Positions 31,271-64,000 of a stretch of DNA of 64,000 nucleotides are shown here, piece after piece. This stretch comes from Dudresnaya verticillata (lineage: Eukaryota): contig OZ374565.1 of assembly GCA_977862235.1 (NCBI GenBank), positions 124,001 through 188,000 on the forward strand, in the 5' to 3' direction. Position 1 is the first letter of the stretch; each line of letters opens with the position of its first letter. The translations under genes and the position numbers were made by a program. A model generated the notes under the pieces. The model was given only the letters and a program-made list of their open reading frames with translations. It was not told where the DNA came from and searched no databases.

Positions 31271-33029
31271 GTTGTTGTGCAGCCGTCACATCAAACCAAG
31301 ACAGGAACTGCTCTGATTAGCAGCCTGCAATGGCTGTTAACGATAAAACGCTCTACGACACACTGCCGGTGATGGGTTGGTGATGTTCGACTTTTTTTAT
31401 TGGGGTCTTAAAACGCCCAGAGGCAGCAAAGTATCTTTTACCTTGAAACACACTCGACCTCGTTACAACTTGAGTCTTGCTTTGCCCCGCTTTCCCGTAT
31501 CTTCTGTATCTCACAGAATGTGTTTGTGACAATGGATTTGAAGGACGTCACAAAAATTTGTATGGTTGCAACAGTCTTAGAAAGTTCTTCGGAAAAATGG
31601 GAAACCTGCTGTTCATTCTCTTATCATGAATCCGTGTTCGTCTCAAGCACGAATCTTGCTGCAGCACGTTTGTTTCCAAGAAGCCCGTTCAAGTTTGAGT
31701 GCCATGAGGACTGCTTGAGTACTTCAAAACAGAAATTTTTTCAGCTCTGAATCAAAGACGTCCGTTCCCTGCTTGCGAACGAGAGCAATTCTCGTCGTGC
31801 TCATTCCGACCAAAATGACATATATGTGGGAACTGAACATGAACAGAGAACCCAGGCAGTCACACAAACAGAACAAATCCCAGATGTGAGCCTCTGCTAT
31901 TGTTTTATAATGTTGTCTTGCCATGTTCATCTTTCTTTCTTTCTTTTCCGTGATGAACCATATATGTACGTCTATAAGGCTCTCATCTAGCTACATGCAG
32001 TAGCAGAAAACAATGCCCCTTTCTTTTGAGCAGTGCTTGGGAATATATCTACTATGTTGCCTTGAACAGATAGTAAAAAGCTTCCCCTGCTCCGCGCCGA
32101 TATTAGAATCCCATAAAGTGAGGTACTGTAGAGCACTATAGCTGCCAGCTTAAGGAATGGTAATCGAGAGAAAACGTTACAGGGGCTTAGGATCTAGATT
32201 CTGGTGGAAGAATATGCAATCGCAAGATGACTCGTTGCAATGCTAGGTCTGGTGTGCTGACCCTGAAATGACATGGTTTCCCTGTGGTTGGAAAACTTAA
32301 TGTTTCCATGACGGTTGCAACAAAACATCGGCATTTTCCCTATACTCTTTTTGTATCCTGATCGGAACCCGTACAGTTGTGATAACAGTTGCAAATTCCA
32401 TATGGAACAGTTCTTGAACTACTCCATGAAATGGTTCAGCATTATCGTCAACGCATGTTTCTAGAGCCAAAGAACTATTGGATTCAGAGAAGATGAGTAT
32501 TAATGATAAGTTAATCCCTTCGATCTGTGCCCGTGTTCGAGTCCTGTACGAAGATGTTTATCCTGTCTATTCTTTGCAGACTGGTACAGAAATCTCTCGG
32601 AAACAGACGTTCAGCTCAATAAAACTAGAAGAAGATAGGGAAAACCAATTCCTTCTTTGATGGACGTGTTGATGGAGCTGCAAGTCCGCGCGAGCTGGTA
32701 TGAAAACTGCACCCGCTTGAATTGCCAGGATTGTCTTGTTTACCGGCTCTTCTTGAACGTCCTTAATTCTCTGGAGGCCTGAAAGAGTCTTTTTCGAACT
32801 CGGAACGATGCTGATGGGCAGTGCTATTTACAATATCATTGAAATCTAGACCAGGTGTTGTTAAAACAGTTCGTTACGTAGAGGAACTCTGCATTTCGAG
32901 AGCAACGTAAGATGCTAAACAGCTCAAGATATTAACGGTATTCTGCTATGATTTTTGTTGCACAGTCTAAGAAACAACAAGAGCAGTACGGGGCGACCTA
33001 GCGCCCCTCTCCACTTTCCGAATAAATTT

Positions 33030-33499: not shown

Positions 33500-34579
33500 C
33501 TAGAACAGCAACATCGGCGACAAAGTGACCGTAGTCTCTTCAGCCCCAGCGTCAACATTAACGACGGCAACAATAGCGTCTGCACACCCAGTCTGACTTC
33601 CTGGCGCAATAGGGACAGAAATCCTGTTCCCAATACTCTTGCCTCTGGACCCAGCCCTCCTCAACACAACAGAAACGACAGCCGACTTCTCAGAGCTGGT
33701 CCCCTCCCACCCAGCGCGCAGAACAATACTTGTCATACCCTTCCACAAGCCTTTCCGATACGCTTCTCCAACCCGCACAATAGCCTTTGAATGGTCCTTC
33801 CTACTTTTTCTGCTGACGTAACTCGAACGCGCCTTGCACTGTTCCCCAACTTGCTTCTCTAGAAACTTGGTGTTCGTGTGCAGCTTCATCCCTTTCTCGC
33901 CCAGCCACGAGTACACAATGCCCAGTTCCAAGCCATCCACAGAATCCACACTCGCTGTGGCGTCACCGATGTCCGGCCCTTCGCCCCGCGGACGCGGCAA
34001 CACGGTCAACGCTTTATTGCGCTGGAACACGAGGGCGGAGTCAGGTTCCTCCACGCCGTTGAAGACGGGAATGGCAATGAAGCTGAGGCGTTCAAACTCG
34101 ACGGCCTCGCGGAAGGACACATCACCGGAGTATACCAAATTGCCCTTCACCTCATCGGCATTCTCGCCCGGTCCGTCATCGAACAACTGAAACTCCTTGT
34201 CGAGATACTCACCGGTCTTGCGGTCGACCTCGCACACGACAAAGTGCTCCGGGGCAGCGGACTTGTCGCCCGTGCGGGCCCGCGAGAGGTCGAGCGAGAC
34301 GCGGATGGTGGCGATGGTATCGACGTAGACGAAATCCGGGGCGAAGACAAAGCCGCGGCTAGACGGCTTTTGCGTGGACGCAACGGGGGAGCAGGTCCAG
34401 GCCTTCTTGGAGTCGAGCCGACACGGGCGCAGCACGCAGGCGGAGGTGTTGCAGGCGCGCTTGGCGGTAGAGCGCTTTGCCACGCACTTTGCGGGACAGC
34501 CGGCGGTCTGGGCCGAGGCGACGTGCGTGAGCAGCAGAAGGAGCGCTACGGAGCGGAGGAGAGTCACGGACGGCATCAT
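33500..34579 (-). CDS. Secreted protein (359 aa), paralog B of 29186-31270 without the Ser/Pro repeats
   Basis: Signal peptide and Cys motif; LFDDGPGENADEVKGNLVYSG, SVDGLELGIVYSW, VRVGEAY.KGLW and IAPGSQTGCA match paralog A. Confidence 0.85.
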   Translation of the reverse strand: MMPSVTLLRSVALLLLLTHVASAQTAGCPAKCVAKRSTAKRACNTSACVLRPCRLDSKKAWTCSPVASTQKPSSRGFVFAPDFVYVDTIATIRVSLDLSRARTGDKSAAPEHFVVCEVDRKTGEYLDKEFQLFDDGPGENADEVKGNLVYSGDVSFREAVEFERLSFIAIPVFNGVEEPDSALVFQRNKALTVLPRPRGEGPDIGDATASVDSVDGLELGIVYSWLGEKGMKLHTNTKFLEKQVGEQCKARSSYVSRKSRKDHSKAIVRVGEAYRKGLWKGMTSIVLRAGWEGTSSEKSAVVSVVLRRAGSRGKSIGNRISVPIAPGSQTGCADAIVAVVNVDAGAEETTVTLSPMLLF

Positions 34580-35229
34580 TGTGGGGATGGGAGAGGTGCT
34601 TGCGGTGGGCCGGGGGTTCGACGGGGGCAGCAGCTACGGGCTGGGCCGGTTAGGTAAAGGTGGGAGGGCATGGCGATGCGGAAGCGACGGGTGTGGGGAG
34701 AGGGGGGCATGCTGTGGATTGCGACTGGGTGAGACTGGATTGGTGCTAGACGGCGGGTAAATTCGAACGGACGCAATGTCGGACTGGGGCGTGGGTTCTG
34801 TTTTGGGCGCGCGGGCACGGAGTGCAAGTTGGTAACGGAGACGAGTGCGGGCGGGACGAAGCGGCAGGGTGCAGGGTGGCGCTCGCCGGCGGGGTGCAGC
34901 GTGGCGGTCGCCGGCGGGGGGTGCGGGAATGCGATGGGAAGGCGCTGTGTTGGAAGCACGGGAGTGTGGTACGTTCGGATGAAGGTGAGGCCTGATGCGT
35001 CCTGATTCTGCATTGAATGCCATCTTGATACGCGGCGCTTCGGTATTGGACGGTTTTACCGTTGCTTACGACTCGTACCGAACGCGTCCACCCAATCATC
35101 ATGGACAAAACGTGCGATTTGTGCGTTTCTCAGCCCCCCTTGCACTTCGCTCCACGGGGTATGCCTTGCACTGCAGCTTATTTCGAGAAGCGTCCATCCT
35201 ATCCACATTAGCTTCCCATCTCAACAACC

Positions 35230-40400: not shown

Positions 40401-42072
40401 ATAAACCCTTTGATCATCAAAAAGCCCAGATATATCTTATTCGCTTTCCACAGGCTGTAGTTGCAGCCCAACAGAAATATTGACTAGTCCATATCTAATC
40501 CCTTCAAGGAAATCTGGGCATATTGCCTTCGCGTTGTGTTCTGCACGCTGTTCTGTAGTCTTGGAAGATGCATTGTAGACCTACTGGGCCAAACAGGAGA
40601 ATAATAATGTCCTCATGCATGAAACACTCATGCGTGTTGCTACGGTAGGTCATTCTGTTGTTGAGTGCCCTCCGTGTGATATATGCCTCAGATTGAAGTC
40701 CGTGTTTCTGGTAAACGCTACGAGTCGTTTATTTACCTTGCGAACGCCTACTGCATGCACACTTCGGGCTCTCTTCTGAGCTCTGAAAAACAGAACTGTC
40801 TATCCGAGTAACATAATGAAGTTGTCCTGATCCTTCGACAACATCATAGTCTGAAGGTTTTGACCATGCAAAAGAGTCGCCTAAAGCATGGAACGAGACC
40901 CTCTACTTTATTCGTGCCATCCTCTGAATCTTGGGAAAGGGGAGAATGGTTCCAAGAGTGCATGCTGCCTTTAGAGTCAAGAGAGGGAGAGGGGAGAGAG
41001 AGATTGGGAGAATGGGCAACATTATAGAGGGGCAACGAAGTGGCAAACTTTGTAGAGCTGATGGGGATTGCTGTTACCCGAGTTTCTGTGCGGGCGTTTG
41101 GCAGATCGCGATCTCGCGGGTCCAGATTACATTTTTCTCCGGAGAGTAAAAGTCCGAGTGTATGAGTTGATAACTGCCATGCAGGCACGTACGTGCACAC
41201 ACACCCACACACGTATGGGACTGGCTTTGATTTGTACGTTAATTTTTTCGTTGACTGGGGCTATGAAAAGCTTAGACAGTCGCATCGTTATGTGATTGCC
41301 TTATCAAAGTGTGGCAGTTTGGACGCTGTCAGCAGAAGGGCTTACAGACGCGCACTCCTTTTCGCGGGACAGACTGTCCCTTAATCAAGACAGCTGTCCT
41401 TTCATCGTCATACACGTGTGTACACGTGGCCTTACAGCTGTATACGTGGCTCGCACGTGGCATTATAATGACGCCAGTTGGACGCCTCGTATTGGCTGAT
41501 TTATGACGCGCGGCGAACGCGGCGTGCACCAAATGCCCTCGCGTTGTACAGATGTGTAGACTCAACCGCATCGGAGTTTCCGTCAACGGCAACAACTGCT
41601 GACCAGGTCGGCCTGTGCCCGTGCGTAGCATGGAGGCCCGTGCCCGTCATCTCCTGCACTCCAGCGTGCAACTCCGGCAGCGGCCGCATCGCCGGAACTG
41701 CACAACTTGCTTTGCGCAAATGAACATGCCAGGTCGCTGACGCCGGCAACGCACCTACAGACCGATCTCGCCTGGTGCAAGGGCTTGTTGGTTGCTAACT
41801 TTATCCGCGCTGAGCTTTCAAGGTCTCGGCGGCGCTACACTCAACAAATCTACTTCAAGCATCGCGCGTTGTTGACACTACTGCGGCGAAGAAACTATCT
41901 TCCGCGCCCGAAACTCACCGCAGCCAACACGCACACCTTCGCTCTCCGCGCTCCAAGCAAAGCCCGACACCCTTGCTCATCACGACCACTGCTGTCAGTT
42001 GCTTACCAAGACCACCACAGCTGCATATCTCACCACTACCACCACGCCCAGGTTACCACTGCCACCCACAAG

Positions 42073-42966
42073 ATGCCGCCATTCGAGCCGCCGCTCTTCC
42101 CACCGCGTACCTACATGCCACAGATCGACCCCGCCACGCAGTTCAACCTGCCCAAAAAGACTGCCGTGCTGCTACACCCGCGCCGTCGCGAGGTTCCCGA
42201 CCCGTTCGCGTCCAAGTTTGGCGGCCGTCCTGCCTGGCCGCGCGACGAGCCGTGGCCGTATTGCACGCAATGCGAGTGTCCGTTCGTCGCTATTGTGCAG
42301 CTCACCCGTGCCGACATCCCGGAGCTGCCCTTCCTGGAAGGTAAGGACCTGTTCCAACTGCTGTGGTGTCCCGGCGATCACGGCGAGGACATCTGCGGCC
42401 CGCTCCCCACCACGCGGTGGCGCGCCGCTCGGGAGATTGGTCCTGTTACTGCGCCGCCGTTCCATGGCGAGTATTACAACCGCGGACATGTACCCCTAGA
42501 ATGTGCGATCTTCCCGGAGCGAATCGAGGAGACTAATGCGTTTGCCGACGATGAAGAGCGTGCCGAGGTCATCAATGCGTGGGTGGCACAAAATGCTTCA
42601 GAGGATTTCGAAGTGCTGCACGTGCCCGAGGACTACCGAGATGATGCATACGAAACCTTGTTCTCCGTAGCACCCAGTACGAAGGTCGGTGGGTACGTCT
42701 CCTTTGTGCAAGATCTGGAACCGGAGACTTGCAGCTGCGGGCGCGAGATGACTCTGATGCTCTCGCTCTCGAGCTCAGATTTTGGTGATGGTACCAGTTG
42801 GTATCGATGGGCGCCGAGTGACTACCCGCGCCAAGCTGATGGTAGCGTCCTCGCTCGAAACAACGCAGGTACTGGCTTCTGCCTTGGGGACATGGGAATG
42901 GTGTACGTTTTCATCTGCAAGCACTGCAAGTCACTCCCGATTTGGACCATCCTTCAGTGCGGTTGA
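42073..42966 (+). CDS. YwqG/DUF1963-like protein, paralog B
   Basis: MPPFEPPLFPPRTYMPQID...FNLPKKTAVLLHPR, SKFGGRPAWP, TKVGGY and LGDMGMVYVFICKHC, colinear with 23627-24514. Confidence 0.78.
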   Translation: MPPFEPPLFPPRTYMPQIDPATQFNLPKKTAVLLHPRRREVPDPFASKFGGRPAWPRDEPWPYCTQCECPFVAIVQLTRADIPELPFLEGKDLFQLLWCPGDHGEDICGPLPTTRWRAAREIGPVTAPPFHGEYYNRGHVPLECAIFPERIEETNAFADDEERAEVINAWVAQNASEDFEVLHVPEDYRDDAYETLFSVAPSTKVGGYVSFVQDLEPETCSCGREMTLMLSLSSSDFGDGTSWYRWAPSDYPRQADGSVLARNNAGTGFCLGDMGMVYVFICKHCKSLPIWTILQCG

Positions 42967-43717
42967 GGATGCGGCGGGGCGCGAGGCTTGTTGTGTTTTG
43001 GTTTCTCGATAGGGGTGTTGTAACGCGGGATAAGAGGTGATAGAATGGTAGCATCTCTTTCGGGGGCGTTAGAGGCAGAGTGCATTTGGGGGCGGTGCGT
43101 TTGTTGCGTGGATGTGTTTGCGGTGGGGTTTTGGCAGTGTTCCAAATTCTGAAAGCGTTGTTGTCGCCGTTGTAAATAAGCAGCAACATCGCCTCAAGCG
43201 AGCACTGCACCGAACTTTGAGAGCGTTCTTGACCAAGTTGCTTCAGATACGACCTCCACGACGCGGACTGAGAAACAGGCAGCGCAGCGGTTGCACTGGA
43301 GAGAAGGCTGTCCCGCAGAGGATGCGCCGCGGCGCAAGAAGGAGCGGCGCAGCGCGAGCTACGGGTCGGAACGCGCGCTCCGCGCTCCACTGCAGCGGCA
43401 GATCGGCGCGAAGCGGGGCGGGCGCCGCGGCGGGACACATGGGGCAGCCGCGGACGCGCACGCGCAATGCCTATCTCCCGCGCGTGTGGGCAAGCGCGTG
43501 CGTGGCGTCACGCGCTGCCACTTGCGCAGGCGCGGCGACGCGCGTGCATGGCCCCGTCATCAGCGCGCAGCTCGACAAACGCGGCAGTAGCCAGTCGTCG
43601 CCCCTGTCCCGACCGTCGCGCTGCGTCCGCGCCCCAATGGGCCGCGCGCAAAGTAACTTGTTGTACTCTGTCCGCAAGCGCGCATGCACAACCCCATCAC
43701 GCTATGCCATGCCTCCT

Positions 43718-43758
<41 letters not shown>

Positions 43759-43841
43759 CATACCGCCGCGCCCCGCACATAACACCGCGAGTGTCGCGCC
43801 GTCGCTCCGCACAACGCATCCTCCCTACCCTCCGCCCCCCA

Positions 43842-44900
43842 ATGCAGCCCCACCAGAACAACCCAAACGGCTTCTACCCGCCCACCTCGTCGCACTACTA
43901 CTCGTCAGACGCTAGTGCCGTGTCGTCCAAGGACGCCCCCTCCGCACCACCTCCGGATACCACCAAAGCCACCTTTCCCGTGCCGAGCCCCATGCATCCG
44001 CAGATGCAACAGCCTATGCAGCAGCCTATGCAACAGCCTATGCAGCAGCCTATGCAACAGCCTATGCAGCAGCCTATGCAGCAGCCTATGCAGCAGCCTA
44101 TGCAACAGCCTATGCAACAGCCCATGCCCATGCAGCAGCCCATGCCCATGCAACAGCCCATGCCCATGCAACAGCCCATGCCCATGCAACAGCCCATGCC
44201 CATGCAACAGCCCATGCCCATGCAACAGCCCATGCAACAGTCTATGCATCAACCCATGCAGCAGCCGATGATGGCGCAACAGCAACTACCCACCATGCAA
44301 CAGCAGTACCCGGGAATGATGCAGCAGCCAGGTATGACGCAACCTGCCATGGGCTACATGACGCAGCCGGTGGCACAGCCGCAGATGAACATGATGCAGC
44401 AGCCGAACGCTTCCTTCACCTCCATGTCTGCCGGCTCCGGCATGCAGTCCGGCCACATCGACGCTATCAAGGCGCATTACCCTGCCGTCGGCTCTTTCAA
44501 GGATATGACCAGCAACATTGCGGGGCTGCACGAGGAGACGATTTTCATGGTTGAGGACGCCATCAGGCGTGTCGTCAATCTCAAGACAAAGATAAACGAA
44601 TTGCAGGCCAAGCGCTCAAGCTACTGGGCCAGACAGGCCGCCAATGGTGGCGTCGCCGTTGCTAGTGCCGTATTTACGTTTGGTACGTCGCTCCTGGTGC
44701 AGGGACCCGGCGCCGTGCATCAGAAGAACAAGTTGGACGCTTTGAAGAGAGAGATTCGGGCGATGCTCGGTCAGCTCAACCAGCTGCGTGATAGCTTTGG
44801 CCACGATTCCAGGTTTAAGGGTGCAGACAATAGTGTGCGCATTGTAGATAGCGTCTTCAAACATGGCATTTCCAGGACCGAGTTGAAGGGTGAATATTGA
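43842..44900 (+). CDS. Gln/Pro/Met-rich low-complexity protein with conserved C-terminal coiled-coil/hydrophobic domain, copy A
   Basis: ATG 43842 (MQPHQNN), (QQPM)n and (QQPMPM)n repeats. C-terminal ~160 aa are nearly identical to 52236-52712. Confidence 0.8.
   Translation: MQPHQNNPNGFYPPTSSHYYSSDASAVSSKDAPSAPPPDTTKATFPVPSPMHPQMQQPMQQPMQQPMQQPMQQPMQQPMQQPMQQPMQQPMQQPMPMQQPMPMQQPMPMQQPMPMQQPMPMQQPMPMQQPMQQSMHQPMQQPMMAQQQLPTMQQQYPGMMQQPGMTQPAMGYMTQPVAQPQMNMMQQPNASFTSMSAGSGMQSGHIDAIKAHYPAVGSFKDMTSNIAGLHEETIFMVEDAIRRVVNLKTKINELQAKRSSYWARQAANGGVAVASAVFTFGTSLLVQGPGAVHQKNKLDALKREIRAMLGQLNQLRDSFGHDSRFKGADNSVRIVDSVFKHGISRTELKGEY
44003..44265 (+). repeat. 12-bp and 18-bp coding repeats (QQPM / QQPMPM)
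   Basis: Arrays of ATGCA(A/G)CAGCCT and ATGCAACAGCCCATGCCC. Confidence 0.9.
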
Positions 44901-46470
44901 CCTCCTCTATTGATGCTTCTTCTTTACGCTGTGTTCACGCTGCACCTATGTGTAGCTCACGCTGTCCCCTTCTTACTTGGCGCCTGGCTTCTTTGCTCTG
45001 TTCAATAAAAAAAACCCGCTGTATGAGGCGCTTGTGCGTGAGCAATGTTGACGAGGGTTTTTGCGAGCATGTCCAAGTTTGGGCGCAATGCTGTGCATCT
45101 TTCCAGGCCGGCCGAAGCCGAATACACTGCCCGTAGCCAGAAACATTTGCAATGAGCCATAGCACACTTGCCCCGCTGTAGTCATGCGAGCCGGTAGCGT
45201 ACTTTTTGCAAGTCAAGGATGGGCCTTCCGATTCTCTAAGTGCTATCACGCCGCAGTATAATGAAGTTATTGGCCGGAGAGATTCTCGCTCATTGCAAAT
45301 ACCGCCAGGCCTGCATGTAGAGGAGAGCACGTTACGTTGCTGTCACGAGTAAAGCAGCGTCTAGACCTTCTTTCACACGTTTGCGACAAGTAAGGTATTA
45401 TTTGCGAGCGGGCTGGCAACCATAGTGGGACCCTCTTTCCCTCTTTCCCTATTGATCGTGAAGGTTTAAGATTTACTGTTTTGTTTAAAGTGGTCCTATG
45501 CGGGCCGGTGACAGGGGCCCGTATCCGAACATTGCGAGATAAGGCCAGCGGGAATGGGCATGGTGACGGGCACTCGTGACACGAGGCTCGCTCGTGGCCT
45601 CTATGTCGCTGAGGACAGCAGGGCAGTCGTGTAGTAGTACTGTAGGTCAGGACCCGGACATCTGAGCCCTCGGATCTTTGTTCATCTTGTGAGTCTCGAG
45701 GTTAGCAAAACTTAGACGTCGCCCTCGCCCTTGCACTAACCTGTTACTGCGAGCCCTCTACGGTCTACCACTTATCGCGGTGTGCAGATTTCGTGCTGGC
45801 TTATTGGCGAGAGCAAATACATCCGCTTGAGCGGAGGATACCAACTTCTAGACAAACTAAAACAAATAAACATTGATCAAAAGCAACAACATAACAAAGA
45901 TAGAGTGACTATAGAAACGCCACAGAGAAATAAACATGCCTCTTCGGGCTCCTGCCAACCGCAGCCCCGCCGTTGATAACTACCACCTTCCTGGCGCGGC
46001 TGCCGCTTGCGCAACGGGATGGTACTTACAGGTTCTGGGTAGCAGACGCTCGAACGGCTACTCTCGGCCAAAGTGATACAGGCTGTAAGTGCTGCCTCAG
46101 ACCCTCTCTCACTGCTCGCTATTCCCCATTTTCACTCTTCACAGGTATACACTCCTTGGCTAAAGTGATGTTTCCCCCAGGTATACATGTAGTTTACCCA
46201 AGTGTGATGGCTGGAGGGGACTCCGAGCCAGGTGACTTGCGGTAACCTACAGGGTGAAGGCAAAAGCTTCGGCTGCGATGCCGGGAGTTTAGTGAGAGTG
46301 ATATCCGAGACGGTATAAGTACTACAGAACCGTGGAGGGAGAGCGACGGCGGCGAGTCCATGACACATGGCCACGTTGCCACGGGGCGGACGCCGTATCG
46401 GAGTCCTCAAAGAGGTGCAACGCCATTCCGGTGAAATAGCCAAGCGCACAGCTGGCTACACTCCCCTCTT

Positions 46471-49400
46471 TCAAAGTGCAAGAAGGCTTCGTGCTTTCTC
46501 AACTAATCCGTTCGGAGTATTCTTGCGCTGGAGAAGGCGGAGCAGCATTGCGGGAACATCCTCGTAGACGCGCTCCAGTGGCTCTAGGGAATCTTCCGAG
46601 TGCGGAAGCCCTTTCCAGCGGACAAAAACCTTCATTCCGTTCGGAGTATCAACCAGACGCATTAAGCGCGCGACTGGCATTCCCATTTCGGAGGACAGGA
46701 CGTGCGACATGATGACGTCCGTGTCCAGTGAGGCGTCATGGTAGAACTTTAGCCGGCAAGCGTGCACGTCCTCAAGAACACCGTTGCGGAGATCTTCGAC
46801 TTGAAAAACCCAGTCGGAGATTGCGTTGATAATCCGACGCGGTCCGCGCCAGCGAAGGGCGAGCTTTTCACCCTTGAAGAAGTCCTCTCGTGCGACGAGG
46901 ACGAAATCACCTTCGGTGAATTTTGGCAGCTCCTCGCGGGAGACTGCGGCACGCTTTCGTTGTCGTGCAATCCGTACGGTGTTTTCAATAACCGGATGGA
47001 GTTCTGCAATTCGGTTCTTGAGCTCGGCGACGTTGATAGCACGCTCGAGCGATACTTTGTCCACCGTAACGGGAGTAGTCGTTTCTGTTCTGAGAAACGT
47101 AGAGATTGGGAGCGTGGGCGCCATGCTCGTAAACGCCGTGATGGGCGCAACTTCTTTCCGTGACGGTGAAGGCACGTTGTTGAGCGCACTCTGAACCAAC
47201 GGGAGAATGTCCGGCCATTCTTCAAACCGCATTTGGAGTTCAGAAACCACCGAACGGAATACGCGTAGGAGCTCCTTACCAAGTCGTTCGACTGCCCCAT
47301 TGCTCCACGGAGAGTAAGGTAGCGTGAAATGGTGGGGAACCTTGAGCCCTTTTGACACCGATCGGAGTACCTCATTCTTGAAATGAGTTGGTCCATCGGA
47401 CATCCATCCGGACGGAACACCAAAAGCAGCAGACCAGTCAATGAGAGAAATTGCTGCTGTTTCCGCTGCGGTGTCGGCGGTGGTGAAGAACCATGCATAC
47501 GCGGAATGATCATCCCGCAGCATCCGGATGTATTTGGCACCGTCACGGCTTGGCCCGACTTCAATATAGTCGAACTGCACTAACCGATTCGGAGCGGTAC
47601 CAAATACGGAGGGTCCGAACAGGCGGGGTATCTTCCCCCCTCCGACTGTCGAAAGACAGTGGATGCAAGCCCGAACGAAGGATCTGACGTCGGCATGAAG
47701 CGTGGGCCAGTAGAACTGCCCATGCCCACGCAACACCTTGGCGTTGGATTTGCGGCCACGGTGGCCGCTCGGTCCGATGTGCGCGATGATGCACGCGCGG
47801 AGTTGTAAGTCCGTAGCGGAGTCAGGAATCCAAATAGCTCCGTTACGGTGTCGCCAGAGTCCGTCCGTTAGGGAGAGGTGTGCCGGCCGCTCTTCATGAC
47901 AGGCAGCCTGCGCGTCGGCGAAGAGCTGGGACGACGGCCATTCGAAATCCGATGCGGAAGAGGAAGGTAACTCCGGAATGTGGACGAGGCGGTGGATTGT
48001 GCGCGGGGCAGACCACCGTCCGAGGAGTTCGGCCCACACGTTATCCACACCCTTGATGTGAAAACACATGTAGCAGTACATACTGAGACGTACCGCCCAG
48101 CGCAATACCTTACGGAGTGTAGTAGCCGAAAGGTCGGGGACAACCGAAAGCGGATCGAAGAGGAAGATGAGGTTGTTTTGGTCGGTGTAGAGATCAAATC
48201 NNNNNNNNNNNNNNNNNNNNNNNNNNNNNNNNNNNNNNNNNNNNNNNNNNNNNNNNNNNNNNNNNNNNNNNNNNNNNNNNNNNNNNNNNNNNNNNNNNNN
48301 NNNNNNNNNNNNNNNNNNNNNNNNNNNNNNNNNNNNNNNNNNNNNNNNNNNNNNNNNNNNNNNNNNNNNNNNNNNNNNNNNNNNNNNNNNNNNNNNNNNN
48401 CGTCCGGAGTAGCAGCGAGCCAGTGCATCCTTTCGAGGGAGGCGAGCACCGCGTAGGCTTCCTTCTCGAGAGTTGACCAACCAAATTGGGTGCGGTTGAA
48501 CCGACCGGAAAGAAACGCGAACGGCTCGTGACGTTGTTCAGCGTGAGATTTCGCAAGGTCCTCGCGAGGAACTTGGGTCATGATCCCTGACCACACCGTA
48601 TCGGAAGCATCTGTGTAAACACACAACCGTTTGGAGTCATCGCGATGTGCGAGGGTGACTTGATGTGCCAAAGCGGTTTTGCATGCCCCGAAAGCGGTTT
48701 CTTCTGTAGCACTCCAACCCGTGAGTGACAGTTGGGTGCGTGCGACGGCGCGTTTCATGCGCTTTCCGACTCGGTTGTAGATGCGCTCCATGGCGTCGTG
48801 GAGAGGTTGTACCAACTCTGCGAATTGCGGAATACCGTTGCGGAGCCACTGTAACGCGCAGAGGAACTGCTGTAGGTGGGCACCGGTTGTCGGAGATTCC
48901 ATTCGGAGTAGGCCATTAAGGCGGGCTGGATCGTAGCGAATACCGTCTGCGGAGATGAGACGGCCACACCACCGTACGGATTTGCTGAAAAGCATGCACT
49001 TCGCAGGGTGCAGCTTGAGGTTGAGTTGCGCGCAGAGCTCTAGAAAAATCCGAATGGCTTCGAGCAGTCCTGCAATCGTCTTGTGATGTAGCAGGATGTC
49101 GTCAAGCCAATGAAGAACTGTCTTGCACAACCGTTTCGGAAGTACCTCAGCCAGGGACGACTGGAGGTGTGTCACAGCATTCGTCGTGCCGTGTAAAACC
49201 CGTGTAGGTGTGTAGATTCCATCCGGAGTAATGAACGACTGCAGCTCCTGGGAGCCCTTGTCCAGTTGGAGTTGCCAGTACCCGTGCGACAGGTCGAAAG
49301 ACGCAAAATACCGGGAATCGGAAAGCTTCGTTAGCTCGTGCTCCAGATTCGGCATCGGGTACTGGTGCTTGACGGTGAATTTGTTCACCGGGCGGAGGTC

Positions 49401-51467
49401 GACCGTGAAACGGAATCGGGCAGGTCCCGGTTTTGGAACCAGTAGGGGAGCGCACGCCCACGGCGATGTGGGGTTCGCGTACGCTAGACCGTTACGGAGT
49501 AGTTGGTCGACGAATCCTTCTAGGAACTCGCGTTGTTCACGCGAGTAATTCCGTAGACGGACTTTGACGGGTCGTGCATCGGGGGTGAGCTCGATCTTGA
49601 GCGGCTTGATTTCGGCTGGGCGTCCAGCAGAAAATCCGGTTCGGAATATATTCACGTGGGTGTCCAGGAGATCAGCTAACTCCTGTTGGTGTTCACCTAG
49701 AAGACCATTCTCCGTTGCGGATTTCTTCATCCCTTCAACTCCGTTGCGGATTGCGTGCTCTTGATCGAGGTCCACTGGGTCGAGTAGGGACTGGTCTGGG
49801 AAGGGGTCTTCTTCATTCCGGGCGGTGTAGTAGTTCACGCGCGGCCTATTATGGGCCGGTTCGCGCTTACCGTTTTCGGAGGTGTCATCCATTTCGCGGA
49901 TGCGGTTGAGGCGTGCGATCATCATGCGACTAATCGCTCCGCCACGGTGTACAGCAGTCGGGTTCCCGACGCTGCTGCAGTCAGCCCCGTCTAACTCCGA
50001 TCGGTTTTGTTCCAGGAGGGTACGGGTGTCCACCTGTAAGTGCTGAAGAACTGGAAGACCGATAAGGAGGTCTTCGCAGGCCAAGTCATCGTCCGCAATA
50101 AGGAACGAGACGTTAGCCAGCGCCAGCTCACCACTTGACAGATGTAAAACCGTTCGGGGAGACGTCCACTTTCGGGAGAATGAAAACTTCTGCGCCTCCG
50201 TGTCGGACTTCAGAGCCACGCTTAACCGTATCGGTGTAATGGCAGTAATCTTGCCTATACCCCGGATGACGGCTCTCTCGGCAAGCTTGGACGACACGAT
50301 GCTGTCGTCGCTGCCGTCATCACAACGGCCTGTCCCGTCGAGAGACGTTTGGCCATCGGAAACGGTTACGGAGCAAGACGGATGAGCATGAGAACTATAA
50401 TCCGCTTCGGTGTGATTCTCCTTCTTGGGAGAAATCCTTCCGGTTAATCCGCCTCCTTTGCTCTGGCTCCTTTCCGTATCGGTTGTCTTGGAGGTATTGT
50501 CTCCTTGTTTGCTCCGTGTGGAGCGTGCGGGTCCGCCGGACGCCCGTTGTGCGGCCAAATCGGAAAACATCTTGTCCTTCTCCTCCTTTGTGGATGCGGG
50601 ACAGTCCTTAATAAGGCGTTTCTTCCCTTTGGACTTGCAGGGACCAAACGGACAGTCGGGCAGCGGGCGTTGAGAGCCGCTATTGCTACTCTTGGTCGCA
50701 CGACCTGTACCGGACGGAGTCTTGTCAGTAGAATTTCCCGATCGGTGTTGTTTGTTATTTCCGTCACGGTGTTCAGAACGCTTCTTGTTCTTTGGACCAC
50801 TGTCCACCAACTGGAAGGCGTCGGACAGCTTGACGGCGTGTCGCATGAACCCCTTGAAATCTTTCTTGAGTTCATGGTGGGCGAAATCCAGATCGGATTT
50901 GAGGCGCTCTTTGAGAGACACCGGTCGGACTGCAGACATAACGTGGCTGACAGCGACCTTCTGGTTGCTCTTAAGCAACCAGGAAATTCCGTTACGGCGT
51001 AATAGGGAGTGGTAGGACACAAAAAGAGACTCCATTCGGGATCGGGCGTTTTTGTCGCTCATATCCATACGACGTTCTTGTCCCACTAGGGTATCCAGAG
51101 TCTCGAGAGTGACAGTCTCCTCGGACTCCTTAGCCTTCTCAGCGAGGTAGTCCCGAAGCACCGTATCGGAAAGTTCCTCGTAGGAGTCTACGCCCTCAAT
51201 GAGGTCGAGGGCGATTGCCGACTCGAGGTATTCGGGGTCAACGCAAAACTTGAGGTTGACCGGACGGACTGCTTCCATCGTGGTGTACCCGGTAGATGTG
51301 AGCTGCCTAGCGCGGGCTGTTACTTCCTGGCTGTACTGATCGTACAGGCGAAGGAAAACGCGGATCGACTCCGCATCCGTTCGGTTTAGACGCGGGTGAT
51401 CAACCGATGTGTCCACAAAAGACGCGCCTTGCGTCGTGACAGGCGGCGTAGAGGATGCCTGTGACAT
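46471..51467 (-). CDS. gag-pol: Gypsy Gag-Pol polyprotein (1598 aa if the 200-N gap is removed)
   Basis: RT (FTVDLR, DLSHGYWQ, WLDD), RNase H (YTDASD, EKE), integrase (H..H...CIHC, FDY, SDG, GAVER), chromodomain (VRWKG...DSLEP). The gap flanks join in frame as ATPD-G-FDLYTD. Confidence 0.9.
48201..48400. other. Assembly gap (200 N)
   Basis: Run of N. Confidence 1.
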
Positions 51468-51874
51468 GATGGTGTCAACTCCGTTTCGGTTTGGAGCCCT
51501 GTGAGGCGATCGGTGGGTGATCGTAGCTCACTTTCGTGAACCTTGTAGGTGACCAGGTTTGATCCGTTACGGATCGTGCACTCCTTAGTCGTAGTGATCA
51601 CTGTGATGGCTGGAGGGGACTCCGAGCCAGGTGACTTGCGGTAACCTACAGGGTGAAGGCAAAAGCTTCGGCTGCGATGCCGGGAGTTTAGTGAGAGTGA
51701 TATCCGAGACGGTATAAGTACTACAGAACCGTGGAGGGAGAGCGACGGCGGCGAGTCCATGACACATGGCCACGTTGCCACGGGGCGGACGCCGTATCGG
51801 AGTCCTCAAAGAGGTGCAACGCCGTTCCGGTGAAATAGCCAAGCGCACAGCTGGCTACACCAAGGAGCCAATTT

Positions 51875-51925: not shown

Positions 51926-52235
51926 AATTGGAAGGCCCATCCTTTACATGCAGAAGGTACGCTACGGACTCGCATGGCTACAGCGGGGGACAATTGTGCT
52001 ATGGCTCATTGCAATTGTTTCTGACTACGAGCAGTGCAGTCGGCTTCGGCCGGCCTGGAAAGATGCACAGCATTGCGCCCAAACTTGGACATGCTCGCAA
52101 AAGCTCTGGTAAACATTGCTCACGCACAAGCGCCTCACGCAGCAGGCCTTTATTGAACAGAGCAAAGACGGCAGCAGCCAAGCAAGAAGGGTACAGCGTG
52201 AACATAGCGTAAAGAAGAAACCTCAATAGAGGAGG

Positions 52236-53423
52236 TCAATAATCACCCTTCAACTCGGTCCTGGAAATGCCATGTTTGAAGACGCTATTTACAACGCGCA
52301 CACTATTGTCTGCATCCTTAAACCTGGGATCCTGGTCGAAACATTCACGCAGCTGGTTGAGCTGACCGAGCATCGCCAGAATCTCTCTCTTCAAAGCGTC
52401 CAATTTGTTCTTTTGATGCACGGCGCCGGGTCCCTGCACTAGGAGCGACGCACCAAACGTAAATACGGCACTAGCAACGGCGACGCCACCATTGGCGGCC
52501 TGTCTGATCCAGTAGCTTGAGCGCTTGGCCTGCAATTCGTTTATCTTTGTCTTGAGCTTGACGACACGCCTGATGGCGTCCTCAACCATGAAAATCTGCT
52601 CCTCGTGCAGCCCCTCAATATTGCTGGTCATATCCTTGAAAAAGCCGACGGCAGGGTAATGCGCCTTGATAGCGTTGATGTGGCCGGACTGCATGCCGGA
52701 GCCGGCAGACATGGAGGTGAAGGAAGCGTTCGGCTGCTACATCATGCTCATCTGCGGCTGTGCCCCCGGCTGCGTCATGTAGCCCATGGCAGGTTGCATC
52801 ATTCCTGGCTGCTGCATCATGGCCGGTTGCATCATACCTGGCTGCTGCATCGTGGCGGGTTGCTGCTGCACCATTCCCGGGTACTGCTGTTGCATGGTGG
52901 GTGGTTGCTGTTGTGACATCATCGGCTGCTGCTGCTGGAGCATCATTCCGGGGGCAGAGCCCATTCCACTGTGCGAAGAGCCGGCGGAGCCCGACGGGGC
53001 TGATGTTGGGGTAGCTGGGATTTGCATGGGGTACTGCATGGGTTGATGCATAGACTGTTGCATGGGCTGTTGCATAGGCATGGGCTGTTGCATAGGCATG
53101 GGCTGTTGCATCGGTTGTTGCATCGGTTGTTGCATCGGTTGTTGCATAGGCATGGGCTGTTGCATGGGCTGTTGCATCGGTTGTTGCATCGGCTGTTGCA
53201 TAGGCTGTTTCATTGGCTGTTGCATGGACTGTTGAATAGGCTGCTGCATAGGCTGTTGCATCTGCGGATGCATGGCGTTCTGCACGGGAAAGGTGGGTTT
53301 GGTTGTACCCGGGCGTGGTACGGAGGGGGTGTCCATGGACGACGCGGCACTAGCGTCTGGGGAGTGGTAGTGTGACGAGGTGGGCGGGTAGGGGCCGTGA
53401 GGGTTGTTCTGGTGGGGCTCCAT
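52236..53423 (-). pseudogene. Inverted copy B of the Gln/Pro/Met-rich gene with a premature stop
   Basis: Colinear with 43842-44900. ATG ATG CAG CAG in copy A reads ATG ATG TAG CAG at 52737-52739; the same frame continues to 52236. Confidence 0.82.
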
Positions 53424-53587
53424 TGCGGGGTGGAGGGGGGGATTGCGCCGAACGACCGTACGACACTCGGGGTGTTATACGCGCGGCACGGCGGCAGGCC
53501 GGCGCGGGAGTTGAAAAGCGAAGGGGCACGCTGAGGAAGGGAATGCTGACGAAAGGGAAGGTGGTGCAGAACAGGATGAATGGGTAC

Positions 53588-58958: not shown

Positions 58959-59907
58959 TCAATCCCCTTCCAAACCCGGCCGGTACCCGCCGTCACCGTC
59001 GCCCCTCTCAACGTCCGAGTCGGTCTCGGCCTTCGTCGTTTTCTCGTCCTCCTCGTCCATCGCGGCCCCCGCCTCGGCCCGCCCAAGAGCGTCCTTTGGC
59101 TTGTGTGCCTCTTTGTCCTTGCCCTTTGACAGTCCCTTCCATCGCTTCCAGAGCAGCATCACCAGGATTGAGCACAGCAAGGGCGGAACGACAAGCGACA
59201 GGCATGGGATCAGGATGATCATCGGCCCGATGTCCGTCTTCACTGCGTTGGTGCACGAAAAGTCCCCGACTTCATTGTAAACCAGGCGTCGTATCTATGT
59301 CACATATTCAACGCAGAAGAAACAGACCGAGGGAGAGAGGAAGAGGGAAGAGAGGAGTGAACAACTCGGTGTTAGTTCGATCTCACAAGCACGCAAACAA
59401 GAGGGAGGGGGGCATCAGCACGAGAAGACGATTCAATTTCAACGCTACTTACTGTTCCGTCTATCCGGAGCGAGACCAGTTCTCGGTCTATTTGCATCCT
59501 TCGCTGTACGTTGACTTGGCTATTGTACAACCAGCCTGCGTTGAACTGGTACAAAATGTCTTGCGTGTCGAAGATGGTCAAGTCGTCTTTTTGCAAGGTA
59601 AAAAACAAAGGCACACAAGAGATATAACAAGTCTCACCCGTCAGTTTGCACAGCCATGACGTATGTCCCTTAATGAAATGTTGGATGGTGACAACATACC
59701 ACATGAAGACTTGGTTTTCAGAAGATACCTGCCGACGACCTCGAATGTGACAGCAAAGTTGACCGGATGGCCGGGATCTGCGGCCCACTCGATGCACTTT
59801 GTGGCAGTAGAACACTGTCGCCAAGGTGGCTTATCACCTGTTCCTCGATTGCCCTCTGGATCGACTGTTGATGAATATTTGGCAGCGTTTGCGCGCGCGC
59901 GCGAGGT

Positions 59908-59939
<32 letters not shown>

Positions 59940-61293
59940 CGCAAGAAGAAGAAGAAGACGCAAGAAGAAGAAGAAGAAGAAGACGCAAGAAGAAGAAGAA
60001 GAAGAAGACGCAACAAGAACAAGAAGAAGAAGACGCAAGAGAACAACGGGTTAGTTTTTCAAGTGACTGGTGGTGGTGTGCAAAATGGATGACAAGACGA
60101 GTGGCAAGAAGACCGTGACAGACTGACTGACACATACCTGTGGCTGCCCAGACGTTTTCCAGGGCCGAGTTGTTGAGGACCGAGTATTGGGCAAGCTCTG
60201 TGACGGAAAGGGATTTGACGCTCTTGGTGATTGCAACGGCCGACTGGTTGAAGATAAAGTTGACGACAGCGACTTCGTAGAAGAGCAGGAAGATGGCGAA
60301 GAAGGCGAGGATGGAGAGGCGGTAGAGGGAGATGGCGAGTCCATACTTTGTGGCAAAGGTCATGGTCTTCTGTGCCGACTTGTGGACGTGTCCATTGGCG
60401 GCGAGCTCATGGGCCATGGCCTCGTCGCGCTCACCGGCAAAGATGAAGAAGGCTGTGAGGAGGGAGCGTCCGCGAAAGACGTGAAAGCGCCAGGCGATGC
60501 AGATGCAGACGAGGATGAAGAGGGCGATGGTGGCGGCGAGGATGGTCCAGGCGGCCCAGTGGAACGGGCGGGTGAGCTGGTGGAAGGCCGAGCGCACGGT
60601 GGACGGCGAGGTGGGCGAGGCCTTGCGGCCGATGATGGTCATGCTGTTGTCGATGAAGGCGGCCGACGCGGTGTGGTGGCACTGGCGCTGCGGGGTCTCC
60701 AGCAGCAGGCCCGTGACTGCAAAGCGGTAGCGGTGGTCGGGCGCGGCCATGACGTGCGTAAAGTCGACCAGGGCGTTGAACGAGCACGCGCTGGCGTGGC
60801 CGGCCCACATGCACAGGTCGTCGCGCGACGACGTGAGCGCGTGCAGCTCAAACGCAATGCCGCCCAGGCTCGGGTGGGCCGCGGCAAAGTCTGCGCAGCG
60901 GAACGGGGCCTGCAGGCGGTCGGCGGCCGCGCGCGACGCGTCGTACGCCGATGGGTCGAGGTGGATGAACGGCGGCTCCTGCAGGAAGAGGAAGCACGTG
61001 GTGTTGGCGGCCGGGTCGCGGCACGGCTCGTAGTCGCGTGGCGACGCGCGCAGACGCGACAGACAGCCGCGCGGCGACGCAGGTGGCGACGCGGGTGGCG
61101 ATGCCGCGGCGGCCGCGGCCGCGCGCGTGGCGTTGTCGTACGCCGCGCAGTCGAACGACGCGGAGACCGGGGAGGAGGACGCGGAGGAGGAGGCGGGGGA
61201 GGACGCCGACGCGGGCGCGCATGCCAGCAGCAGCGGCAGCAGCGCGAGCAGCGCGCGCGCGGGAGGGCGGCGTGGCGCGGCGGCGCGTGGCAT
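58959..61293 (-). CDS. Ionotropic glutamate receptor-like (GLR/IR-type) protein A, complement(join(58959..59294,59453..59586,59700..59864,60138..61293)), 596 aa
   Basis: Signal peptide; S1 (LQEPPF; LLETPQR..SAAFID); M1 (RPFHWAAW); M3 (FLLFYEVAVVNF); S2 (KSVKSLS..YSV..S); pre-M4 (DGTIRRL..C) and M4. Three GT-AG introns with consistent phases give 1791 nt. Confidence 0.8.
59908..60042. repeat. (GAA)n-rich microsatellite in intron 1 of GLR-like gene A
   Basis: Seen directly. Confidence 0.9.
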
Positions 61294-61568
61294 GGCGGGC
61301 GGGCGCGGCGGCGCGGCGGGGGGAGCGACGGACGGGGGGGGGCGTCGGACGGTGCTGCGGCGGCGGTCGCGCCGGGTCATGCGCTGCGCGCGGCGGGGGC
61401 GGGGCGGCCGCGGCGCGTCATGCGGCGGCGCGGCGCGTTTGTTGGCGGCGCGGCGGTGCGTGGGCGGGTGCGTGCGTGCGTGCGTGCGTGCGCGCGTGCG
61501 TGCGCGAGCGGTGGGTGCGCGTGCGCGCGAGCATTGGTGGCGCGCGCGGGGGGCGCGGCGGGAGCGGC

Positions 61569-61640
<72 letters not shown>

Positions 61641-62281
61641 AGCGCGGCAGCGCGGCAGCGCGGCAGCGCGGCAGCGCGCACGCGGCGTGCGGCGCGCGGC
61701 GCGCGGAGACGGTGTCTGGCAGGGAGCGCAGCGCGCGCGGCGCGGCGCGGCGCGCGGTGGCAGCGAGGGCGGCGCGGTATAATGCGTGCGGCGCATTTGT
61801 GCGCTGCCGGCGCTTTTGCGTGAGGTCACGCGAAATGGCGCGGCGCCGTACCGCGGCGCGCTGGCGGACGGCGCGGCCCACGCAGCGCGCGCGCGGCGCG
61901 GCCCGGCACGGCACGGCACGCATCGAACCGCATCGCGTCGCGCCGCGCCGCGCCGAGCATTGGGTGTTTCGCGTGCCGTCGCCGCCGGCCAGCACCCACC
62001 GCTGGCGCCGGCTCAACGGCGCCTCGGCGCCACGTCGCGAAAACAAAATCCGGAAAGCGCCGCTTTCGGACCGGCAGCCGGAGCGCGGTGGTGCCGCCGC
62101 GCGCGCACATCCGCGCGCCTCCGCGCGCCGCCAGGCACGCCCGCGCCACCCGCGCCCCATCCACCCATCCCTCGCTCCTCTTCCGCCGCCGCTACAACAC
62201 CCGCAGCCCCGCCGCCGCCGCCGCCAGCAACCTCCCACCCCCACCCCCACCCGCACCCGCACCCGCACCCGCACCCACACC
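61294..62281. promoter_or_regulatory. Very GC-rich putative bidirectional promoter with (GCGCGG)n, (GCGCGGCA)n and (GTGC)n repeats
   Basis: 988 bp between two divergent ATGs; CpG-dense; TATAAT at 61778. Confidence 0.55.
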
Positions 62282-64000
62282 ATGCCGCTCCTCCACCTCC
62301 GTCCCCGCCTCCGTCCCCGCCTCCGTCCCCGCCTCCTTCCCCCCCTCCTCCCCCCCCTCCTCCTCCTCCTCCTCGCGCCCCCCCGCCCCACGCTCGCATC
62401 CTCCTCCCAAGTCTCCGCCGACTACGACTGCGCCAACCACAAGTCGCTCTTCTCCCTGCCGCCGCGCCGCGACGCCGACTGCCTGCAACTGCTGCGCGAC
62501 CCTGCGCACGTCGCGCGCTTCGACATCTGCAAGTCCACCACGTGCTACCTGTTCCTGCAAGAGCCGCCGTTTGTCAAGTTCTCCACGGCCGCTCTGTCGT
62601 CGTCGCGCGCCGCGCTGCTCTCCTACCAAAGGCCGTTTGCCTGCGCAGCCCCAAAGTCGCTGCACGCGTCGCTGGGCGGCGTGGCCTTCTCGCTGCACGC
62701 GGCCACGTCGTCGCGCGACGCCCAGTGCGTGTGGGCGGGCCCCATCTCGGCGTGCTCGTTCAACGCGCTGGTGGACTTTGCGCACGTCATGTCGGCCCCG
62801 CCGCCGCCGTCGTCGTCGGACGCCCAGCCCTACCGCTTTGCCATCACGGGCTTGCTGCTGGAGACCCCGCAGCGCCAGTGCGTGCACGAGCCGTCGGCCC
62901 CGTTTATCGACAACTCGATGGTTGTCATCGGCCGCAACACCGGCGATGACCCGGCCGCAAAGGGCCCGTTCTACCAGCTCATGCGCCCGTTTCGCTGGAC
63001 CACGTGGGGTATCTTTGGCGCCGTCATCGCGCTCTTCATGCTTGTCTGCTTTGCTATCGCAGTCAGGTTTCATGTCTTTCGCGGACGCTCGCTTGTGACC
63101 GCCTTTTTCATCTTTACCGGCGAGCGCGACCAGGCCATGGCCCATGAGACTGGCCATCGCGCATACCATGCTGCCCACCCGTCGTCGTCGTCGTCGTCGC
63201 ACCAGCCCCACAACAACAACAACAACAACAATAATAATAATAATACTTGTACTACTAATAACCCCGCCCACCCCACCACCACCGCCGCCGCCTTGCCGTC
63301 CTCCATGCGCAAGCTGTTCTTCCGCCCGCGGAGGGGCCGTGTTGTGGAACGCGTCATAACCACCGCTCCACCTCCACCTTCACCTTCACCTTCTGCTGCT
63401 GCAAACGCAAACGCAGCTACTGCTGCTGCTTCTGTATCGCTCCCGCTACCGCCGCCGTCGGACCACCACCACCACCGCCACCGCAACCACGCACAACACC
63501 AACACTCGCTGCAGCCGCTGCAGCCAATGCCCTCAGAGGACGAGATGCTCAAGAAGAGCATGTCGTTTGCAACAAAGTACGGCCTCGCCATGACGCTGTT
63601 CCGCATCTCGCTGCTCGCCTTTGTCGCCGTCTTCATGCTCTTCTACGAGGTTGCCGTCGTCAACTTTCTGTTCCAGCAGCAGAGCCTCGAACTCAGCAAG
63701 AGCGTCAAGAGCCTCTCCATCTCAGAGCTCAACGAGTACTCGGTCCTCAAGGACTCGGCCCTCGAAAACGTCTGGAACGCCACAGGTAAGTCTTTTTTGT
63801 TGCGCTTTGTATCTTGTTGTTGTTGTTGTTGCTGCTGTGTTTCTCAACGAGCTGACCGACAAAAATGTCTCTAAAATAACAATGGCATGGCTCTCTCGAC
63901 AGTCAACCCAAAAGGCCTCAAGTACGACGGCCTCAACCCGAATGCCATCCCGTGGGAGCGCTGCTCCAGCGCGGCGCAATGCATCGAGTGGGCCGATGAC
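62282..64000 (+). CDS. Ionotropic glutamate receptor-like protein B (partial), join(62282..63785,63903..>64000)
   Basis: Paralog of A (LQEPPF, FNALVDF, LLETPQRQC, RPFRWTTW, FYEVAVVNF). Same intron position after ENVW.AT (GTAAGT at 63786, CAG ending 63902). Long His/Asn/Pro-rich loop insertion. Confidence 0.82.

Follow-up and report, generated by a model that had tools for sequence, protein, structure and literature searches.

Two head-to-head genes of Dudresnaya verticillata from a family of ionotropic glutamate receptor homologues with Glu at the gate position

What do two neighbouring genes encode whose products resemble glutamate receptors, but which lack the amino-terminal domain (ATD) and carry an altered gate motif? 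The question is raised by a stretch of 64,000 nucleotides from Dudresnaya verticillata (GenBank assembly GCA_977862235.1, contig OZ374565.1, positions 124,001 to 188,000 of the forward strand), the whole of which is called the window here; positions are counted from its first letter. The two genes, A and B, lie head to head at its right end, with ATGs at 61293 (minus strand) and 62282 (plus strand) and 988 bases between them, as had been read in a preliminary description made from the sequence alone. [quoted passage not shown] They would be paralogues of a red-algal, ATD-less iGluR family and subunits of tetrameric cation channels.

Homology to the ionotropic glutamate receptors

The Pfam check on Lig_chan and SBP_bac_3 suggested in the preliminary description gave a negative result. 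When Lig_chan, Lig_chan-Glu_bd and SBP_bac_3 were looked for in 5 segments of the window, no iGluR family came above its curated cut-off, and among 103 family members only 1 matched Lig_chan (E 0.0037, 17.5 bits vs a cut-off of 30.8). This miss is a limit of detection, and the homology was seen instead by deeper profiles and by fold. A profile of 43 rows found GluN2A in the PDB with an E-value of 4.7e-8, and a profile of 103 rows found GluD1 (E 7.6e-12), colinear from the first ligand-binding segment S1 to the last membrane segment M4, as well as the plant glutamate receptor-like (GLR) protein AtGLR3.4 (E 2.3e-8). In the HMMER alignments the family sequence YEvavvnfl is paired without gaps with YTANLAAF of GluN2A and GluD1, and the family Arg with the S1 Arg. 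Lig_chan clusters were also returned by the Atlas features for A exon 1 (0.91-0.92) and for a Porphyra member (0.96).

The fold was predicted with AlphaFold for P0002, a close homologue that is about 55-57% identical to A exon 1. A first model based on 10 rows was poor (predicted local distance difference test score, pLDDT, 50.9) and was replaced; its structure searches already listed iGluRs weakly. The model based on 103 rows reached a pLDDT of 83.9 and a predicted TM-score (pTM) of 0.74. With this model, the best Foldseek match had an E-value of 4.5e-11 and all matches listed were iGluRs. A search of 48,161 chains by a method other than Foldseek placed the ligand-binding domain (LBD) of AvGluR1 first (Z 21.6, root-mean-square deviation (rmsd) 3.1 Å over 232 residues, model residues 64-475), followed by domains of GluN1/GluN2A, a ctenophore receptor, GluN3A and GluR0, with bacterial binding proteins at Z 16-19. 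Compared with an ATD-deleted NMDA receptor, the model gave Z 20.4 and an rmsd of 4.6 Å over 294 residues. Identity in the structural alignments to animal iGluRs was only 10-16%.

The model has helices at residues 209-235, 241-248, 280-324 and 484-517, which gives the predicted iGluR order of M1, M2 and M3 between S1 and S2, followed by M4, with a short M2 that would be re-entrant. Model and profile matches together likewise predict a bilobed S1/S2 LBD of the periplasmic-binding-protein fold that is interrupted by a pore module. A divergent ligand-gated channel family with a bilobed LBD and a pore had been proposed before, and the match of the P0002 model to the iGluR clamshell upholds that proposal as regards the fold.

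Two results speak against the homology. Searches with single sequences (phmmer, A exon 1) and with the 10-row profile found 0 matches in the PDB, and the TM-scores of the P0002 model to whole iGluR chains were low (0.31-0.38 by query in Foldseek), with high rmsd. Low TM-scores would be expected if the clamshell and the membrane part are oriented differently. We concluded that A and B are within the iGluR superfamily by profile and fold, and outside the canonical animal, plant GLR and GluR0 groups by defining features.

The search with A exon 1 gave 19 relatives, and the 10-row profile gave 390 representatives at E<=0.001, of which 257 were found at <=1e-10 and 115 at <=1e-30. Each representative stands for a cluster at 50% identity, and the figure is not a count of genes: fragments and single-exon gene calls are numerous, and ordinary iGluRs may be present in the tail beyond the best 150. 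The full-length rows are mostly 17-30% identical to P0002. Thirty members were looked up, and the 9 that carry a species name are all from red algae: Agarophyton chilense (4), Gracilaria domingensis, Gracilaria changii, Eucheuma denticulatum and Porphyra umbilicalis (2). The other 21 could include lineages other than red algae. One further Gracilaria domingensis member was found in a separate search. The relatives from Gracilaria changii and Eucheuma denticulatum stem from transcriptome sets. No named member carries a functional name, and the two from Porphyra umbilicalis are labelled hypothetical. A pattern scan, which sees close relatives only, gave 36 and 43 matches in prokaryotic genomes and viral contigs, respectively, none of which was confirmed; in metagenome contigs, 2 loci were obtained from 172 pattern matches, with one gene copy at each. 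A distant family member lies at positions 3100-5055 of locus L001; its first intron is at the A/B position and it has at least three more introns.

Gene structure and domain architecture

Gene A consists of four exons, and the spliced open frame has 596 residues plus a stop. Its three GT..AG introns measure 273, 113 and 158 nt, and a CTRAC-like branch motif is present in all of them. The splice model is supported by the match of the four exons to four consecutive parts of the full-length homologue P0002, at 41-76% identity. Gene B has two exons in the window, separated by an intron of 117 nt, and runs past the window end inside S2. The features are as follows.

58959..59294 (minus): gene A exon 4; S2 end (Cys499), M4, acidic cytoplasmic tail, stop
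59453..59586 (minus): gene A exon 3; S2, matching P0002 residues 416-460 at 76% identity
59700..59864 (minus): gene A exon 2; S2, including Glu427 in the place of the acid that binds the amino group
59865..60137 (minus): gene A intron 1; 273 nt, phase 1, filled with GAA repeats, position common to B and L001
60138..61293 (minus): gene A exon 1; signal peptide, short N-terminus, S1, M1, M2 loop, M3, S2 start; about 55-57% identical to P0002 (tblastn 55%)
60256..60282 (minus): FYEVAVVNF in M3 of A (gate motif, residues 338-346), with Glu340 in the place of the gate Thr and Asn345 at the Lurcher site
60430..60462 (minus): M2 of A (residues 278-288), pore helix and tip, with Phe-Ala-Gly-Glu as the last four residues
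60685..60687 (minus): A S1 Arg203, alpha-carboxylate-binding position
61294..62281: divergent intergenic spacer between A and B; 988 bp, 82% G+C, many short tandem repeats
62282..63785 (plus): gene B exon 1; signal peptide, S1, M1, M2, insertion, M3, S2 start
62873..62875 (plus): B S1 Arg198, placed by sequence and alignment
63149..63545 (plus): B low-complexity insertion in the predicted cytoplasmic M2-M3 loop; limits approximate
63641..63667 (plus): B M3 gate motif FYEVAVVNF, residues 454-462
63786..63902 (plus): gene B intron 1; 117 nt, phase 1
63903..64000 (plus): gene B exon 2; part of S2, leaves the window before M4

Hydropathy analysis detected a signal-like segment, M1, M3 and M4 in gene A, and M1 and M3 in gene B. 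Hydropathy, profile and model agree with the earlier reading of an ATD-less S1-M1-loop-M3-S2 layout in both genes, with M4 visible in A. The two proteins are 63% identical over 316 core positions, and the low-complexity insertion between M2 and M3 of B increases the distance from the M2 Gly to the M3 Tyr to 175 residues, vs 52 in A.

Absence of the ATD is a feature of the whole family. In all rows with a Met start that reach across the first strand of S1 (93/93), S1 is preceded by no more than 113 residues (median 61; 99 in A). A hydrophobic N-terminal stretch was present in 31/42 full-length rows, and an M4-like segment in 43/43. The N-terminus had been described as short and as the place of the Cys residues; it is short, but the Cys are spread over S1 and S2. 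In and before S1, six Cys are kept in 95-100% of rows and a seventh in 54/73, and they probably form disulfides; a pair in S2 is kept in 40/43 and 38/43 rows.

The M3 gate, the pore loop and the ligand pocket

No element of glutamate receptors is more conserved than the motif SYTANLAAF, whose Thr lines the gate. Both A and B have FYEVAVVNF at this position, a claim of the preliminary description that the ungapped HMMER alignment confirms; the register of M3 is fixed by the ungapped alignments to GluN2A and GluD1. Across the family, the Tyr is kept in 117/129 rows, the gate Thr is replaced by Glu in 117/129 (the Glu is kept in 38/43 full-length rows), the seventh-position Ala by Val in 91/125, the Lurcher Ala by Asn in 87/125, and the Thr after the Lurcher position by Phe in 107/129. 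Where animal receptors have Thr/Ala/Thr along the stripe that faces the pore, A has Glu340/Val344/Phe348, which we take to be the positions of T617, A621 and T625 in GluA2. The Glu340 column is the 10th most conserved of 244 well-filled columns. These three GluA2 residues are named as gate residues (PMC13153358). In the membrane segments of exon 1 (M1 to M3), no conserved basic residue was found close to Glu340; the nearest, Arg325, is on the same helix 15 residues off, and its position is basic in 55%. The simplest reading of this pattern would be a ring of four Glu beneath a Val/Phe seal. It is quite likely that Glu340 faces the pore, and possible, although we lean against it, that it raises Ca2+ permeation.

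The pore loop is less conserved than M3. In the P0002 model, M2 is an eight-residue helix that stops before Thr-Gly-Glu. Of 130 rows, 93 keep the Gly, 124 have a hydrophobic residue two positions ahead of it and 69 an acidic one next to it; the M2 tip is hydrophobic and poorly conserved. A Gln, Arg or Asn at the filter tip was not found in the family, and the potassium-filter motif TXVGYG is absent from the M2 segments of 129 rows. A register with the conserved Gly inside the M2 helix, as in the HMMER print, was set aside for one with the Gly at the loop tip, because the model helix ends two residues before the Gly and the shortest Gly-to-Tyr distance is 28, which we take to be the spacing in GluA2; the choice between the two registers is uncertain.

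The S1 Arg is kept in 125/128 rows, including A and B, and an acid (Glu/Asp) at the S2 position in 30/43, Glu427 in A. In the numbering of GluA2, these are R485 and E705, and the other pocket positions are T480, S654 and T655. The T480 position is Leu or Phe in 84/128 rows and the S654 position is Ala in 99/130, while the side-chain position T655 varies (Leu 44, Thr 22, Ser 12 and Gln 11 of 130) and is Leu in both A and B. In 39/43, Gly, Ala or Ser takes the place of the S2 Tyr. HMMER pairs the family 'nsal' with 'DSAV' of GluD1. The sequence ETPQR is present in both genes, and the Arg of TPQR is retained as had been stated before; its Thr is not the ligand-binding Thr, whose position is Leu here. 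The pocket may thus be an amino-acid backbone site that has no partner for the side-chain carboxylate of glutamate. The side-chain site has Ala-Leu, comparable to Ser-Ala-Val in GluD1, which would disfavour specificity for glutamate.

Taken as a whole, it is fairly probable that A and B encode cation channels that assemble as tetramers, are opened by small or neutral amino acids and have an acidic Glu ring in the M3 gate. Of its parts, the conduction of cations is likely, and a ligand of the amino-acid type is slightly favoured. The signal peptide would place the S1/S2 clamshell outside the cell, where Arg203 would bind the carboxylate of the ligand and Glu427 its amino group. Closure of the clamshell would pull M3 open. 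In the closed gate, Phe and Val would form the seal, and the four Glu below would attract cations, possibly favouring Ca2+.

Several points weigh against this reading. The amino-binding Thr of S1 is replaced by Leu or Phe in 84/128 rows, Gly, Ala or Ser occupies the S2 Tyr position in 39/43, and 13/43 have no S2 acid, so that the pocket may not bind amino acids. The motif counts may be inflated, since the family was collected with a motif-bearing profile. The direction of Glu340 rests on the alignment register, and the model is a monomer of the homologue P0002. The M2-M3 loop is unconserved and ranges from 28 to 175 residues (Gly to Tyr). In addition, selectivity is described in two reviews as not predictable from pore sequence (PMC3483616 section 10; PMC11479355). 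A complex prediction for four copies of A residues 232-354, run without alignment and with uncertain partner fold, scored 0.00 and was counted neither way.

The same gate residues can be read differently. The channel could be standing open or regulated by protons, in which case Asn at the Lurcher site would destabilise the closed state, the Glu ring would titrate with pH, and ligand would only modulate. Mutating the Lurcher Ala gives constitutively open channels, and this Ala is fully conserved even in placozoan receptors, as is the Ala-Thr of the gate site that is tied to Ca2+ permeation (PMC12226733); the family has Asn there in 87/125 rows, and in a closed gate the four Glu would be mutually repulsive without protonation or a bridging cation. 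However, Val and the conserved Phe (107/129) on the same stripe could seal the pore, and the S1 Arg in 125/128 rows suggests selection on ligand binding; we consider a standing-open or proton-regulated channel improbable. A receptor that binds a ligand but does not conduct, or that resembles GluD, and signals through its tail or the M2-M3 loop with a structural role for the Glu, is in our view slightly less probable again. It would agree with GluD1 being the best sequence match, with an unconserved selectivity-filter region and loop insertions of up to 175 residues, and with the bulky Val and Phe in the gate. But conservation among the membrane segments is highest in M3, it is lacking in the cytoplasmic loop and tail, and plant GLRs conduct cations despite a divergent pore loop (PMC3483616 section 10). 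We retain the ligand-gated cation channel as the preferred reading.

The gene pair, its window and the relation to known receptors

A and B had been read as co-regulated subunits of one channel, and a shared intron position had been noted. The shared position is real, as intron 1 of both genes is in phase 1 at the identical aligned codon, but it is not special to the pair: the donor of L001, which is 30% identical, lies at the same codon. At the intron-1 junction of database proteins, the next residue is Gly in 48/125 and Val in 40, as a read-through of the intron would give. The shared first intron is therefore family-wide. A 103-row tree separates A and B into different subclades and puts B beside P0005 (69% identical, SH-aLRT 98); a 31-row tree of exon 1 showed the same separation with weaker support, and sisterhood of A and B was modestly rejected by the approximately unbiased (AU) test (p 0.036). 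Both trees are quick IQ-TREE runs. The ratio of nonsynonymous to synonymous substitutions (dN/dS) between A and B is 0.44 (dS 0.68), to which we give little weight, because third positions are 84% G+C and dS is probably underestimated. A and B are old paralogues.

Neighbouring family copies were also observed elsewhere, CAN8071743 and CAN8071745 on one contig of 36,977 bp and P0001 and P0004 on one of 66,996 bp, and such pairs (P0001/P0004, P0021/P0029) are close sisters. No further family copy besides A and B was found in the window, which holds two further inverted paralogue pairs. In the spacer 61294-62281, no long inverted similarity was found between the two halves; it contains arrays of GGCGCG, GCGCGGCA, GTGC and CACCCG. 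With the intron more widely shared, the genes in different subclades and other inverted pairs in the window, co-regulation as subunits of one channel is unsupported.

A stronger form of that idea, compatible with the reading preferred here, would be an obligate heteromer of A and B expressed from one bidirectional promoter. A shared promoter is possible at a spacing of 988 bp, and the genes are old paralogues that are still adjacent. A B-like and possibly an A-like sequence share a Eucheuma transcriptome prefix (P0012, P0017), and heteromers are common in iGluRs and GLRs (PMC11479355). On the other hand, A and B share the gate motif and the S1 pocket residues, which gives no sign of a division of labour; the window is rich in inverted duplicates; the other neighbouring family pairs are close sisters; no second genome with a head-to-head pair of A-type and B-type genes was found; and the placement of P0017 next to A was unstable across trees. 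We regard the obligate heteromer as rather improbable. The head-to-head layout looks ordinary, and the interest lies in the family and its gate.

The rest of the window contains the following features.

2517-8627: Copia-type element (rve, RVT_2), whose last 1.7 kb is repeated at 99.7% in 1-1710
11520-13622 (plus): intronless frame of 700 residues with acyltransferase-3 and SGNH parts, a layout known from bacterial O-acetyltransferases, here in an algal genome
14084-15328 (minus): probably secreted protein with Trp-rich repeats that resemble a beta-propeller lectin; no Pfam match at E<=0.001
23627-24595 (minus) and 41629-42966 (plus): inverted DUF1963 gene pair, 68% identical over 425 bases
24880-26493 (plus): RING-IBR ubiquitin-ligase-like gene
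26964-29141 (minus): gene with two GATA zinc fingers
29186-31285 (minus) and 33500-34633 (minus): two probably secreted proteins with an apparently common C-terminal domain, the first with a 72-bp Pro/Ser-rich tandem repeat
43272-45233 (plus) and 51926-53508 (minus): duplicate genes in inverted orientation (about 80% identity) that contain Gln/Met/Pro-rich repeats, lack a Pfam match and lie tail to tail around the next element
46203-51860: long terminal repeat (LTR) retrotransposon; 259-bp terminal repeats 99.6% identical, RVT_1/RNase H frame (minus) broken by a 200-base N gap

Among the known receptors, plant GLRs such as AtGLR3.4 (profile E 2.3e-8, Z 18.1) share with the family the order S1-M1-M2-M3-S2-M4, the S1 Arg, the S2 Glu and tolerance of a residue other than Thr at the S1 amino-binding position (Ala/Thr), as well as a hydrophobic pore-loop tip, Phe662/Phe663 in AtGLR3.4 (PMC11479355). 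Plant GLRs are defined by an ATD and the motif SYTAxL (PMC11479355), neither of which was found in the family; it has FYEVAV instead, lies below Pfam detection and, if the M2 register is right, is acidic (69/130) where AtGLR3.4 has Arg666, three past the tip Phe-Phe (PMC11479355). The animal iGluRs (GluD1, GluN1/GluN2, GluA2, GluK2) provide the best profile matches, and they share the S2 Cys pair and, in GluD1, a Ser-Ala-Val similar to the Ser-Ala-Leu of the family. In contrast to them, the family lacks the ATD, SYTANLAAF and the Gln/Arg/Asn filter tip, its gate residues are replaced, and seven additional Cys are conserved in and before S1. The LBD of AvGluR1 from Adineta vaga is the top structural match (Z 21.6), about tied with that of GluN1/GluN2A (20.6) and followed by GluR0 (19.3-19.9), which also has no ATD (PMC11479355). 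Unlike GluR0, the family has M4, and it has no TXVGYG, the M2 potassium-filter motif of the GluR0/AvGluR1 type (PMC3483616).

Insect ionotropic receptors (IRs) likewise have a short N-terminus without ATD, strong divergence and tandem copies, but they are described as being of protostome origin and as having N-termini of about 200 residues (PMC2924276), against a family median of 61. Since all 9 named members of the 30 looked up are red algae, membership of the insect IR clade is unlikely, and the resemblance is probably convergent. By analogy, the family could nevertheless be a chemosensory repertoire of the IR kind, that is, expanded, fast-evolving ATD-less channels tuned to varied seawater cues other than amino acids. 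Such a repertoire would account for the many deep paralogous clades, the at least 4 members in Agarophyton chilense, the neighbouring copies and the variable side-chain site, and insect IRs share short N-termini and tandem arrays (PMC2924276). The near-invariant carboxylate-binding Arg (125/128), however, fits carboxylate ligands, and no ATD-bearing co-receptor turned up in word-limited searches reaching 1,105-1,117 residues. We consider this alternative unlikely, if somewhat less so than the others, and keep to channels gated by amino acids.

GLR homologues of red algae have been reported before: Porphyra umbilicalis, Gracilariopsis chorda and Pyropia yezoensis each have two, suggested to be receptors of 1-aminocyclopropane-1-carboxylic acid (ACC) (PMC7028691), and three per genome in Pyropia, one of them induced by wounding, together with a spore-release response to glutamate (PMC8969420). 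They have been linked to ACC, glycine, glutamate and wound responses and called uncharacterised (PMC7028691, PMC8969420). The passages on the Porphyra, Gracilariopsis and Pyropia homologues mention neither architecture nor motifs, and these homologues may or may not belong to the present family. In the literature covered, from which subscription journals are mostly missing, we found no description of an ATD-less red-algal iGluR family or of FYEVAVVNF, and neither this motif nor the identifiers of the Porphyra members turned up in any paper.

Surveys of algal ion channels have likely undercounted the family, as it goes undetected by Pfam. With Asn at the Lurcher site and a Glu at the gate that persists across some 20% identity, this natural family offers a test of how the gate affects opening and Ca2+ flow. 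As a tentative and rather doubtful extension, multicellular red algae may have an expanded ATD-less class in which ion selection has shifted from M2 to the Glu ring of M3, giving Ca2+-preferring receptors for ACC or glycine behind the reproduction and wound responses of nori. The family provides concrete candidates for the ACC or amino-acid receptor of red seaweeds (PMC7028691), a lineage that includes the nori, agar and carrageenan crops.

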